From Escherichia coli (lineage in GTDB: Bacteria; Pseudomonadota; Gammaproteobacteria; Enterobacterales; Enterobacteriaceae), in NCBI RefSeq assembly GCF_003334385.1, contig NZ_QOWN01000018.1: DNA of 64,000 bases, one strand, 5' to 3'. Positions 45,636 to 49,637 of this stretch are shown here, one piece after another. The notes under the pieces were generated by a model that had not been told where the DNA came from, ran no database searches, and saw only the letters and a program-made list of their open reading frames with translations. The first letter of the stretch is position 1. Each line of letters begins with the position of its first letter. The position numbers and the translations under genes were made by a program.

Positions 45636-45836
45636 CCAAACAGAGAATGTCTTTTCAGCGCATTCGCAGGCAGAAATGGGAATAATGGCGATATATACGG
45701 CAGCAAAACGATTTTTTGCTTAAGAAATCGTGAGTTAAGGTTGAAAGAGCAGGTTTAACTCGACCATACTCTATACTCGCAGTGTGGCGCGGCGTAGCAT
45801 GGCGCAACGCATGGCTATTTGAAAAAGGAAAATGTC

Positions 45837-46196
45837 GTGGCAGAAGAAACTATATTCAGCAAAATTATTCGTCGTGAGATCCCCTCCGATATCGTCTACC
45901 AGGATGATCTGGTAACGGCGTTTCGCGATATTTCGCCGCAAGCGCCAACGCATATTCTGATCATTCCGAATATCCTCATTCCGACTGTGAACGACGTCTC
46001 AGCTGAGCATGAGCAGGCGCTGGGACGCATGATCACCGTAGCGGCAAAAATTGCTGAGCAAGAAGGTATTGCCGAAGATGGCTATCGTCTGATCATGAAT
46101 ACCAACCGCCATGGCGGACAAGAGGTTTACCACATCCATATGCACTTGTTGGGTGGCCGTCCGCTGGGACCAATGCTGGCGCATAAAGGTCTGTAA
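45837..46196 (+). CDS. hinT: HIT-family purine nucleoside phosphoramidase
   Basis: ORF track 45819..46196; start placed at GTG 45837 ([16 protein letters not shown]...), 119 aa; histidine-triad HIHMHLLGG. Confidence 0.9.
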
Positions 46197-46198
46197 CG

Positions 46199-46576
46199 AT
46201 GAGAAAAGGATGCTTTGGGCTGGTGTCTCTGGTGTTGTTACTGCTGGTGGGCTGTCGTTCACATCCGGAAATTCCGGTGAATGATGAGCAATCGCTGGTG
46301 ATGGAGTCATCTTTATTGGCTGCGGGCATCAGTGCAGAAAAGCCCTTCCTTTCGACGTCTGATATTCAACCTTCAGCATCCTCAACGCTTTATAACGAAA
46401 GGCAAGAACCCGTTACCGTTCATTATCGTTTTTACTGGTATGACGCCAGAGGGCTGGAGATGCATCCTCTGGAAAGGCCACGCAGCGTTACCATTCCCGC
46501 ACATTCGGCGGTAACGCTGTACGGCAGCGCCAATTTTCTGGGGGCGCACAAAGTCAGACTTTATCTATATTTGTAA
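46199..46576 (+). CDS. ycfL: Uncharacterised lipoprotein YcfL
   Basis: ORF track 125 aa; lipobox signal MRKGCFGLVSLVLLLLVGC. Confidence 0.85.
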   Translation: MRKGCFGLVSLVLLLLVGCRSHPEIPVNDEQSLVMESSLLAAGISAEKPFLSTSDIQPSASSTLYNERQEPVTVHYRFYWYDARGLEMHPLERPRSVTIPAHSAVTLYGSANFLGAHKVRLYLYL

Positions 46577-46589
46577 GGGGTGAATCTTG

Positions 46590-47231
46590 ATGACAAAAAT
46601 GAGTCGCTACGCCTTGATTACCGCGCTGGCGATGTTTCTCGCCGGGTGTGTGGGGCAACGTGAACCTGCACCGGTAGAAGAAGTGAAACCAGCGCCGGAA
46701 CAACCAGCCGAGCCACAACAGCCTGTCCCCACAGTGCCCTCGGTGCCGACGATCCCGCAGCAGCCAGGCCCAATTGAGCACGAAGATCAAACTGCACCGC
46801 CTGCGCCGCATATTCGCCATTATGACTGGAATGGCGCAATGCAGCCGATGGTCAGTAAGATGCTTGGGGCTGACGGGGTGACTGCGGGTAGCGTCCTGCT
46901 GGTTGATAGCGTTAACAACCGTACTAACGGTTCGCTGAATGCCGCAGAAGCGACCGAAACGCTGCGAAATGCGCTGGCTAATAACGGGAAATTTACCCTG
47001 GTTTCCGCCCAGCAACTGTCGATGGCGAAGCAACAGTTAGGTTTGTCGCCGCAGGACAGTTTAGGCACCCGTAGTAAAGCCATAGGCATTGCCCGCAATG
47101 TCGGCGCTCATTACGTGCTGTACTCCAGCGCCTCTGGCAACGTTAACGCTCCGACCCTACAAATGCAGCTGATGCTGGTGCAGACGGGCGAAATTATCTG
47201 GTCAGGTAAAGGTGCCGTTTCGCAGCAATAA
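46590..47231 (+). CDS. lpoB: Outer-membrane lipoprotein activator of PBP1b (LpoB)
   Basis: ORF track 46587..47231; ATG 46590 gives [20 protein letters not shown] lipobox, then Pro-rich linker, 213 aa. Confidence 0.9.
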
Positions 47232-48036
47232 TCCCATCACGCGCGACGAATTGCTGTCGCGCTTTTTCCCGCAGTATCATCCCGTCACGACGTTTAATAG
47301 TGGGCTTAGTGGCGGGAGTTTTCTCATTGAACATCAGGGCCAGCGTTTTGTTGTGCGTCAGCCGCACGATCCTGATGCGCCGCAGTCCGCGTTCTTGCGC
47401 CAGTATCGGGCTTTATCACAACTACCCGCATGCATTGCACCGAAGCCGCATTTATATCTCCGTGACTGGATGGTAGTCGACTATCTGCCCGGCGCGGTAA
47501 AAACGTATTTGCCGGATACCAACGAACTGGCAGGCTTGCTGTATTATCTACATCAACAACCACGTTTTGGCTGGCGAATAACGCTGTTGCCGTTACTGGA
47601 ACTGTACTGGCAGCAAAGCGATCCGGCGCGGCGGACAGTGGGTTGGCTGCGAATGTTAAAACGTCTGCGCAAAACGCGGGAACCACGGCCTTTACGCTTA
47701 AGTCCATTGCATATGGATGTCCACGCCGGAAATTTAGTGCATAGCGCGTCAGGGTTAAAACTCATCGACTGGGAGTATGCCGGAGATGGTGATATCGCGC
47801 TGGAACTGGCGGCGGTGTGGGTGGAAAATACTGAACAGCACCGGCAATTGGTCAATGACTATGCCACTCGCGCGAAGATTTATCCGGCGCAATTATGGCG
47901 TCAGGTCAGGCGATGGTTTCCCTGGCTGCTGATGCTCAAAGCAGGGTGGTTTGAGTACCGCTGGCGACAAACCGGCGATCAACAATTTATCAGGCTGGCC
48001 GATGACACCTGGCGGCAGCTATTAATAAAACAATAA
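47212..48036 (+). CDS. thiK: Thiamine kinase
   Basis: ORF track 274 aa from GTG start; overlaps the lpoB 3' end by 20 nt. Confidence 0.9.
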
Positions 48037-48046
48037 GGAGAGCAGT

Positions 48047-49072
48047 GTGGGTCCAGTAATGTTGGATGTCGAAGGTTACGAACTGGACGCGGAAGAGCGT
48101 GAAATACTGGCGCATCCGCTGGTGGGAGGGCTGATTCTCTTTACGCGTAACTATCATGATCCTGCCCAGTTACGTGAACTGGTGCGCCAGATCCGCGCAG
48201 CTTCGCGCAATCGTCTGGTGGTGGCGGTTGATCAGGAAGGTGGACGCGTGCAGCGTTTTCGTGAAGGTTTTACCCGCTTGCCAGCGGCGCAATCATTCGC
48301 TGCGCTGTCAGGAATGGAAGAGGGTGGCAAACTGGCGCAGGAGGCAGGTTGGTTGATGGCCAGCGAAATGATCGCTATGGATATTGATATCAGCTTTGCG
48401 CCTGTGCTGGATGTCGGGCATATCAGCGCGGCGATTGGCGAGCGTTCTTATCATGCCGATCCACAAAAAGCCCTGGCAATTGCCAGCCGGTTTATTGATG
48501 GTATGCATGAAGCCGGAATGAAAACGACCGGGAAACACTTCCCAGGACACGGTGCAGTAACGGCAGACTCACACAAAGAAACACCGTGCGATCCACGTCC
48601 ACAAGCGGAGATTCGCGCTAAAGATATGTCGGTCTTCAGTTCCTTAATCCGCGAAAATAAACTCGACGCCATTATGCCTGCGCATGTGATCTACAGTGAT
48701 GTTGATCCGCGTCCGGCGAGCGGTTCTCCCTACTGGCTGAAAACCGTTTTGCGTCAGGAACTGGGTTTTGACGGCGTGATTTTCTCTGACGATTTATCGA
48801 TGGAAGGTGCCGCGATTATGGGCAGTTATGCCGAACGCGGGCAGGCTTCACTGGATGCGGGTTGCGATATGATCCTGGTCTGCAATAATCGTAAAGGGGC
48901 CGTCAGCGTGTTAGATAATCTGTCACCGATCAAGGCAGAACGTGTTACACGTTTGTATCATAAAGGTTCATTTTCGCGACAGGAACTGATGGACTCGGCT
49001 CGCTGGAAAGCGATCAGCACCCGTCTGAATCAGTTACATGAACGCTGGCAGGAAGAGAAAGCAGGTCACTAA
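48047..49072 (+). CDS. nagZ: Beta-N-acetylhexosaminidase (peptidoglycan recycling)
   Basis: ORF track 341 aa. Confidence 0.95.
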
Positions 49073-49094
49073 CCCTGGCTTATGTGAGGAAGCG

Positions 49095-49637
49095 ATGATT
49101 ATCTATTTACACGGTTTTGACTCTAACAGTCCGGGTAACCACGAGAAAGTCTTACAATTGCAGTTTATTGACCCGGATGTACGCTTGATAAGCTACAGTA
49201 CGCGGCATCCGAAACATGATATGCAGCATCTGCTTAAAGAAGTGGACAAAATGTTGCAACTGAACGTTGACGAGCGTCCGCTAATTTGCGGCGTTGGCTT
49301 GGGCGGATACTGGGCGGAACGGATTGGTTTTCTTTGCGACATCCGCCAGGTGATCTTCAACCCTAATTTGTTCCCTTATGAGAACATGGAAGGCAAGATT
49401 GATCGCCCGGAAGAGTATGCCGATATTGCCACTAAGTGTGTGACCAACTTCCGTGAGAAGAATCGCGATCGTTGCCTGGTGATTTTGTCGCGTAATGATG
49501 AAGCGCTTAACAGCCAGCGGACATCTGAAGAGTTGCATCATTATTACGAGATTGTCTGGGACGAAGAGCAGACGCACAAATTCAAGAATATCTCCCCGCA
49601 TTTACAGCGCATTAAAGCGTTCAAAACCCTCGGGTAA
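49095..49637 (+). CDS. ycfP: UPF0227 alpha/beta-hydrolase-fold protein YcfP
   Basis: ORF track 49038..49637; start placed at ATG 49095 ([15 protein letters not shown]...), 180 aa. Confidence 0.85.

Follow-up and report, generated by a model that had tools for sequence, protein, structure and literature searches.

Do the six closely packed genes hinT, ycfL, lpoB, thiK, nagZ and ycfP of Escherichia coli form one co-regulated unit, and does their packing point to a shared function in the cell envelope? The question was raised by a sequence-only reading of a 64,000-nucleotide stretch of E. coli DNA (NCBI RefSeq assembly GCF_003334385.1, contig NZ_QOWN01000018.1; hereafter the window, to whose numbering all positions refer), in which the tight coupling was taken to suggest envelope and peptidoglycan functions for the uncharacterised ycfL and ycfP. 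Our analysis argues strongly for a known operon with graded expression, whose genes would be a syntenic assembly and not one pathway.

The hinT-ycfP operon has already been named in the literature. Over a 5.5-kb stretch around the cluster, the window matches E. coli K-12 MG1655 and the laboratory strains related to it at 100% identity; this stretch was found in 5,426 of 5,426 complete E. coli genomes. The locus is the published E. coli operon, nothing in it differs, and the operon itself adds nothing new. What this analysis adds is the conservation of a promoter motif, of the lpoB/thiK overlap and of the GTG starts, a hairpin in thiK and the absence of a serine from YcfP.

Organization of the cluster

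Gene coordinates follow the RefSeq annotation, converted to window numbering. All six genes lie on the + strand. The first, hinT (45837-46196, GTG start), encodes a purine nucleoside phosphoramidase of the HIT family and is followed by ycfL (46199-46576), encoding a lipoprotein of unknown function with a DUF1425 domain, and lpoB (46590-47231), encoding the outer-membrane lipoprotein activator of PBP1b. The thiamine kinase gene thiK (47212-48036; APH-type kinase fold) begins with a GTG 20 nt inside lpoB and precedes nagZ (48047-49072), for a cytoplasmic beta-N-acetylhexosaminidase (GH3) of peptidoglycan recycling, and ycfP (49095-49637), for a UPF0227 protein of the alpha/beta-hydrolase fold with Gly68 at the position of the nucleophilic serine. 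Successive spacings are +2, +13, -20, +10 and +22 nt. Annotation and sequence thus both bear out a cluster with gaps of -20 to +22 nt, and the six genes are packed like a single transcription unit. The GTG start of thiK and its 20-nt overlap with lpoB are visible in the sequence, as had been described; the overlap is the longest between same-strand genes in the window, where the others measure 1-11 nt.

The start codons required two changes. The GTG start proposed for hinT was right, and its position was not: hinT had been placed at 45819, and the annotated GTG is at 45837. A TTG at 45819, which is in frame at the top of the maximal open reading frame, was rejected as the start, as the sequence upstream is variable and M-A-E is conserved in 26 aligned Enterobacterales. 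The list of non-ATG starts, with hinT and thiK correctly on it, was incomplete, since nagZ also begins with GTG (48047, with AGGAG 6 nt upstream), which brings the number to three of the six genes.

The families named for the six products all reach curated NCBIfam or Pfam thresholds. The hinT product scored 264.5 bits with NF007965 (cut-off 206) and carries the histidine triad HxHxHxx as HIHMHLL. LpoB scored 218 bits with the equivalog TIGR02722 (cut-off 110.55) and its translation contains the lipobox LAGC; by profile and lipobox, the lpoB product is the PBP1b activator LpoB. ThiK scored 554.5 bits with NF007620 (cut-off 206) and 337.4 bits with TIGR02721 (cut-off 299.45), and NagZ 537.3 bits with the equivalog NF003740 (cut-off 207). 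YcfL and YcfP are described below.

Conservation of the cluster

Gene order was identical in 79 of the 79 other Enterobacterales species scored, and for this reason the arrangement is not attributed to chance. The lpoB/thiK overlap measured 14-23 nt in all 79 and intergenic spacing was similar throughout. Start positions in these species were assigned heuristically, by taking the start codon closest to where the E. coli start aligns. On this basis thiK begins with GTG in 69 species and nagZ in 72, whereas hinT begins with ATG in 65 and with GTG in 14, the latter confined to Escherichia, Citrobacter and Salmonella. Identity to the E. coli proteins was 83-99% for hinT, 80-100% for ycfP (second in conservation among the six), 77-97% for nagZ, 48-99% for lpoB, 38-98% for ycfL and 34-88% for thiK, the fastest-evolving gene. 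Of the 79 species, just one has an interrupted cluster, an uncultured Erwinia metagenome-assembled genome (L079), in which thiK is separated from nagZ by about 1.7 kb of inserted DNA and nagZ from ycfP by about 1.1 kb.

A NagZ-anchored genome scan returned Enterobacterales only (77-97% identity). Outside the order, a non-enterobacterial genome of 4.8 Mb contains nagZ-ycfP (59% identity) with the other four genes absent within 7 kb, and two metagenome contigs carry a NagZ C-terminus directly 5' of ycfP. Another metagenome contig (L088, 440-4573) has the order hinT, lpoB, thiK-like kinase gene, DUF6279 lipoprotein gene, ycfP and ndh, without ycfL and nagZ; its YcfP has an internal deletion and is 140 aa long. 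These other compositions show that the cluster, though old, can be divided.

Transcription signals

A candidate sigma-70 promoter was observed upstream of hinT by consensus scan and conservation (45741-45770, + strand), with TTGAAA (45741-45746) and CATACT (45765-45770) separated by 18 nt. The predicted transcription start at about 45777 would give a leader of about 60 nt. In the 26 aligned Enterobacterales, the TTG of the -35 element and the ATACT of the -10 element are (nearly) invariant, while the spacer around them varies, and they are its only conserved blocks besides the ribosome-binding site.

Inside the cluster, promoter-like sites (5, with 5.9 expected in shuffled sequence) and terminator-like sites (8, with 5.1 expected) occur at chance level. 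The best internal promoter-like site, with an extended -10, lies in nagZ (48862-48889). It was not retained because it encodes the conserved peptide CDMILVCNN, which makes its conservation uninformative.

Published 3'-end data for NC_000913.3 (Adams et al. 2021, PMC7815308, supplementary file 2) were converted to window positions by subtracting 1,116,048 from the genome coordinate. This offset was obtained from a match to the rne leader and checked against the printed sequence of the ycfL 3' end. The data contain a Rho-dependent termination region inside thiK (genome 1163767, window 47719, + strand), with upstream/downstream counts of 182/51 in untreated cells and 96/85 with bicyclomycin (Rho score 3.16, p 1e-7). 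Because of this drop the distal genes are attenuated in K-12 and expression is not simply uniform; expression of the cluster is probably uneven. No Term-seq 3' ends were reported between the genes of the cluster in the MG1655 tables. A weak 3' end that is not Rho-dependent was listed inside ycfL (genome 1162434, window 46386; PMC7815308); it has no obvious hairpin and may be a processing site.

Beyond ycfP, no canonical terminator was found. The ycfP-ndh spacer contains an 11-bp perfect-stem palindrome of the repetitive extragenic palindromic (REP) type (inverted repeat, 49648-49679; -22.8 kcal/mol, z -5.45) and a REP pair (49694-49762). The latter matches the Rfam family naRNA4 (RF02564) on both strands with 56.5 and 52.5 bits, where the gathering score is 59.5, and also the REP consensus; in the search of the cluster at E<=1, it was the sole Rfam match. 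A second Rho-dependent region follows in the same spacer (genome 1165914, window 49866, + strand; counts 153/58 untreated and 142/132 with bicyclomycin, Rho score 2.45; PMC7815308). The transcription unit therefore seems to be terminated by Rho ahead of ndh.

Three further features lie in this spacer, upstream of ndh, which starts at 50037 (+ strand). The palindrome TTGAT-N4-ATCAA at 49887-49900, the sole exact copy in the window, has the FNR-type consensus, and its presence fits separate regulation of ndh. Just 5' of the ndh start lies a 25-nt imperfect AT-rich inverted repeat (49963-50016), and a published RNase III cleavage site (genome 1166043, window 49995) falls between its arms.

As to independent promoters and terminators that would separate the six genes, internal promoter-like sites thus stand at chance level, yet the Rho-dependent drop in thiK (182 to 51) is accompanied by a conserved hairpin (see below). 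The claim of one co-regulated unit is supported in part by the packing, the conserved promoter motif and the operon of the literature, and is qualified by Rho-dependent attenuation inside thiK. Co-transcription of the six genes is plausible but graded.

Hairpin within the 5' end of thiK

The best terminator-like match of the scan is a hairpin at 47241-47267 (+ strand), 10 nt past the lpoB stop codon, with the stem GCGCGACG/TGTCGCGC of 8 pairs, a 6-nt loop and a following TTTTT (-14.1 kcal/mol, z -2.05 in K-12). In 48 species of the Escherichia-Citrobacter-Salmonella-Klebsiella-Enterobacter-Kosakonia group, 97.7% of the cells were paired. One pair is C-G in 24 species and U-A in 22, through synonymous changes at the third position of one Arg codon and one Ser codon (CGC/TCG vs CGT/TCA), and in one species (L028) the pair is retained although Asp/Ser is replaced by Ala/Ala. 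None of 500 shuffles reached the observed covariation, and all slid registers paired far worse.

This hairpin is absent from 26 further species (Cedecea, Buttiauxella, Serratia, Erwinia, Pantoea and Mangrovibacter), in which a second hairpin, CCGGCGGC-NNNN-GCCGCCGG followed by TTGTTTTTC, lies about 25 nt further 3'. It has 8-10 GC-rich pairs (about -20 to -22 kcal/mol), is 99% paired, and switches from C-G to U-A at two pairs, with the protein changing from Ala-Ala to Val-Thr. Hairpin fold energies ranged from -12.6 to -21.9 kcal/mol (z -3.3 to -4.1). The sequence form of an intrinsic terminator, a GC-rich hairpin with a U-tract, is present in K-12 and in the second clade. In 49 of the 79 loci a terminator-like site lies no more than 110 nt from the lpoB stop, compared with 0.019 per equal window elsewhere in the cluster, an enrichment of about 30-fold.

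In all species the reading frame is open from the overlapping thiK start, and no consistent start codon was found past the hairpin. TIGR02721 covers ThiK residues 26-270 and leaves the first 25 residues outside the model. The hairpin consequently lies inside the open reading frame, in an N-terminal extension beyond TIGR02721. Being coding in every species, these hairpins might have no function as RNA and reflect selection on the N-terminal peptide of ThiK (TRDxxLSR or PAAQAAG) together with GC-rich codon choice, and the shared ancestry of the species inflates the counts of pairs. We consider this explanation rather doubtful, because the 25 residues concerned are those outside the TIGR02721 model, the paired changes in 24 and 22 species fall at synonymous third positions, other paired changes alter the amino acids (in the second clade Val-Thr for Ala-Ala, in L028 Ala/Ala for Asp/Ser), and two different hairpins occupy neighbouring positions, each with a U-rich tail. 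An RNA-level function of the thiK hairpin is likely, and it may act as a partial terminator, as 3'-end protection of the hinT-ycfL-lpoB part or in translation-sensitive attenuation.

If the hairpin were a true terminator, the cluster could consist of two units, hinT-ycfL-lpoB ending there and thiK-nagZ-ycfP transcribed mainly from an internal promoter. The second-clade hairpin, which by sequence is a canonical terminator (stem and energy as above, then the U-rich TTGTTTTTC), and the extended -10 site at 48862-48889 inside nagZ are in line with such a division. It is nevertheless quite improbable: no 3' end is reported at the hairpin in K-12, the thiK 3'-end counts become nearly equal when Rho is inhibited (96/85), which argues against strong intrinsic termination, internal promoter-like matches are at chance level, conservation of the nagZ site is uninformative within CDMILVCNN, and thiK starts inside lpoB in every species.

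The element could matter for work on cell-wall growth, since LpoB dosage is critical: in a published study, one additional copy made the mecillinam minimal inhibitory concentration 192-fold higher. If the conserved element separates lpoB expression from that of the downstream genes, it would be a real control point.

YcfP, a hydrolase fold with glycine at the nucleophile position

YcfP belongs to UPF0227 (PF05728, E 1.3e-77), matches NF003431 and is annotated as "alpha/beta hydrolase YcfP". Structure prediction, which had been proposed as a check for this protein, gave a confident model (predicted local distance difference test score, pLDDT, 91.7) of the alpha/beta-hydrolase fold, with YqiA (9bi7) as the nearest fold match (template modelling score, TM, 0.77). 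The label "alpha/beta hydrolase" is therefore right about the fold and doubtful as to the hydrolase, as the nucleophilic serine is absent. In a HMMER alignment to two solved YqiA esterases, GVGLGG of YcfP stands opposite GSSLGG, so that the G-x-S-x-G elbow reads G66-V-G68-L-G70 and Gly68 faces the catalytic serine of YqiA. For the Klebsiella pneumoniae YqiA, the triad Ser69, Asp147 and His172 and esterase activity have been published, and chain numbering identifies this serine as the residue that faces Gly68.

A motif census observed G-V/I-G-L-G-G in 117 of 120 close YcfP relatives, and the other 3 had no match to the motif pattern. The glycine is also present in the 59%-identical non-enterobacterial orthologue (P0242), whereas nearly all remote UPF0227 members (<=36% identity) have G-x-S-x-G. 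The acid and histidine of the triad are kept, His161 being invariant and Asp135 present in at least 90% of the aligned sequences. Cys65 was dismissed as an alternative nucleophile, since Val takes its place in the 59%-identical orthologue. Judged by these residues, hydrolase activity of YcfP is unlikely. Since the fold and two triad residues are kept and the nucleophile is absent, we infer a non-hydrolytic role, for example in binding or regulation. The genome-wide "hydrolase" label of YcfP may mislead functional screens.

Two remote UPF0227 members (L005 2294-2851 and L006 1900-2457) were found on contigs with the T4-like phage genes Gp23, gp32, UvsY and Gp59; among the phage-contig members, P0290 retains the serine and P0336 has glycine at that position. 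A K. pneumoniae activity-based profiling preprint mentions ycfP a single time, among inconsistent names (ycfF, YcfA, yfbF), and was not counted as evidence of fluorophosphonate reactivity.

YcfL, an envelope lipoprotein

YcfL is an envelope lipoprotein of the DUF1425 fold. It has the lipobox LLVGC, with Cys19 invariant across orthologues, and matches PF07233 (DUF1425) with an E-value of 4.3e-26. The AlphaFold model is a beta-sandwich with a pLDDT of 86.7 overall and above 90 in the domain, and its best Foldseek matches were Cj0090 of Campylobacter jejuni (4gio) and the DUF1425 protein Shew_1734 (3o0l, root-mean-square deviation 1.4 A). The latter was also matched by sequence with a profile of YcfL orthologues (E 0.006).

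Sequence matches listed for YcfL comprised near relatives only, and a search with the Shewanella DUF1425 fragment, taken from the PDB alignment, gave no matches. As these searches returned no distant loci, the evidence for linkage of ycfL and lpoB beyond the order consists of the fold match and the published work on Campylobacter (see below). PADLOC gave no defence-system matches for YcfL or YcfP.

Function of the cluster

Tight packing does not force a shared envelope function. The idea of such a function gains from the YcfL lipoprotein with its Cj0090 link and from nagZ-ycfP adjacency beyond the order, and it fails for ThiK, which acts in thiamine salvage, and HinT, a cytoplasmic phosphoramidase, neither of which is an envelope protein. 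An envelope role for YcfL and a link of YcfP to NagZ are both reasonable.

In its full form, the idea would make the six genes one envelope and peptidoglycan module, in which YcfL acts with LpoB on PBP1b, YcfP acts with NagZ in muropeptide recycling, and HinT and ThiK feed the same process. LpoB and NagZ are peptidoglycan proteins, in Campylobacter the structural relative of YcfL shares a transcript with the LpoB homologue Cj0091, nagZ-ycfP adjacency is retained outside Enterobacterales, and YcfP, at 80-100% identity across the order, is conserved above NagZ. Moreover, D-alanine dehydrogenase activity was published to need HinT, and D-alanine is a wall component. However, the published Keio deletions of ycfL, lpoB, thiK, nagZ and ycfP lack the D-alanine phenotype of the hinT deletion. 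ThiK phosphorylates thiamine (NF007620) and has no known wall role, and in the part of a meropenem transposon screen available to us lpoB was flagged and its neighbours were not. Other lineages have the cluster without ycfL and nagZ, or nagZ-ycfP alone, and the missing nucleophile makes an enzymatic recycling step by YcfP unlikely. Our literature search found no cell-wall phenotype for ycfL or ycfP and no phenotype linking all six genes. A single module of this kind is thus unlikely.

The reading that we prefer, a known operon with graded expression and a syntenic rather than functional unity, would work as follows. A single conserved promoter of the sigma-70 type, about 60 nt 5' of hinT, would initiate transcription, and the six frames would be translated from a polycistronic RNA, each with its own Shine-Dalgarno sequence. 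The thiK start, seen in the sequence inside the end of lpoB, may couple translation of the two genes, and the GTG starts of thiK and nagZ, conserved across the order, would add to the grading. Transcription would then be attenuated inside thiK, in a Rho-dependent manner in K-12 according to the published 3'-end counts. The covarying thiK hairpin probably contributes, either by termination or through 3'-end protection of the hinT-ycfL-lpoB portion. The unit would end in the REP palindromes and the Rho-dependent region, before the separately regulated ndh promoter. The cluster would be a long-standing syntenic set of a periplasmic pair (YcfL and LpoB), a cytoplasmic peptidoglycan-recycling pair (NagZ and YcfP) and two unrelated cytoplasmic proteins (HinT and ThiK).

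Several points weigh against this reading. Co-transcription of all six genes was described in one paper as an "apparent operon" from in silico analysis, and the conserved motif upstream of hinT supports a promoter as a candidate and not as a mapped start. The scored species are related, so that the counts of 79 overstate the number of independent events. At the thiK hairpin, MG1655 Term-seq reports no in vivo 3' end (genome 11632xx-11634xx, PMC7815308), which leaves its role in K-12 unproven; the TTTTT of K-12 is TATTT in other E. coli, and the conservation of a hairpin within coding sequence could come partly from the protein.

A joint reading of the two new elements can be offered tentatively, with the balance of evidence short of it. 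The first 25 or so codons of thiK would be a conserved attenuator embedded in the open reading frame, and YcfP would be a catalytically dead alpha/beta-fold protein with a binding or regulatory function, partnering NagZ in the recycling of muropeptides in the cytoplasm. In the attenuator, the hairpin just past lpoB would form unless ribosomes from the weak overlapping GTG translate through it. Together with Rho, this might set a fixed high-to-low step between hinT-ycfL-lpoB and thiK-nagZ-ycfP across Enterobacterales.

Neighbouring features

Upstream of the cluster, fhuE ends at 45503 on the minus strand. The surrounding 64 kb are rich in envelope genes (lolCDE, ldtC, nagK, murJ, yceG, flgJ and lpxL). 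No Rfam family reached its gathering score inside the cluster. Elsewhere in the window, such matches were the PyrC leader (6560-6609), the RNase E 5' untranslated region element (28344-28680) and the small RNA SraB (30541-30709), all of them already known from this region of the K-12 chromosome.

Comparison with known systems

The Rho-dependent region of thiK resembles the other termination sites internal to open reading frames in Adams et al. 2021 (PMC7815308), where it is listed and lies in a polycistronic unit. The operon is not discussed in that study, which also lists no 3' end for the thiK hairpin; conservation and covariation of the hairpin come from the present analysis.

The YqiA esterases (PDB 9bi7 and 4fle) are like YcfP in fold (TM 0.76-0.77), in family (PF05728) and in the Asp and His of the triad. 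They differ in that YqiA has the complete Ser69-Asp147-His172 and esterase activity, while YcfP and its orthologues have Gly in place of Ser, and sequence identity is only 17-18%.

The closest parallel to the ycfL-lpoB pair is the cj0089-cj0090-cj0091 operon of C. jejuni, which is co-transcribed (PMC3100323). As in E. coli, a small beta-sandwich lipoprotein is encoded directly 5' of an LpoB-family lipoprotein; Cj0091 has been described in the literature as an orthologue of HP1457, an LpoB homologue, and the homology is taken from that description. In contrast to the E. coli cluster, the C. jejuni operon begins with the TPR lipoprotein gene cj0089 and has no hinT, thiK, nagZ or ycfP, and Cj0090 is only about 20% identical to YcfL in sequence. 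The Campylobacter case is independent evidence that lipoproteins of the YcfL and LpoB types are linked, as an association only. The pairing of the two types in Gammaproteobacteria and Campylobacter gives YcfL, a protein of unknown function, a concrete partner for testing.

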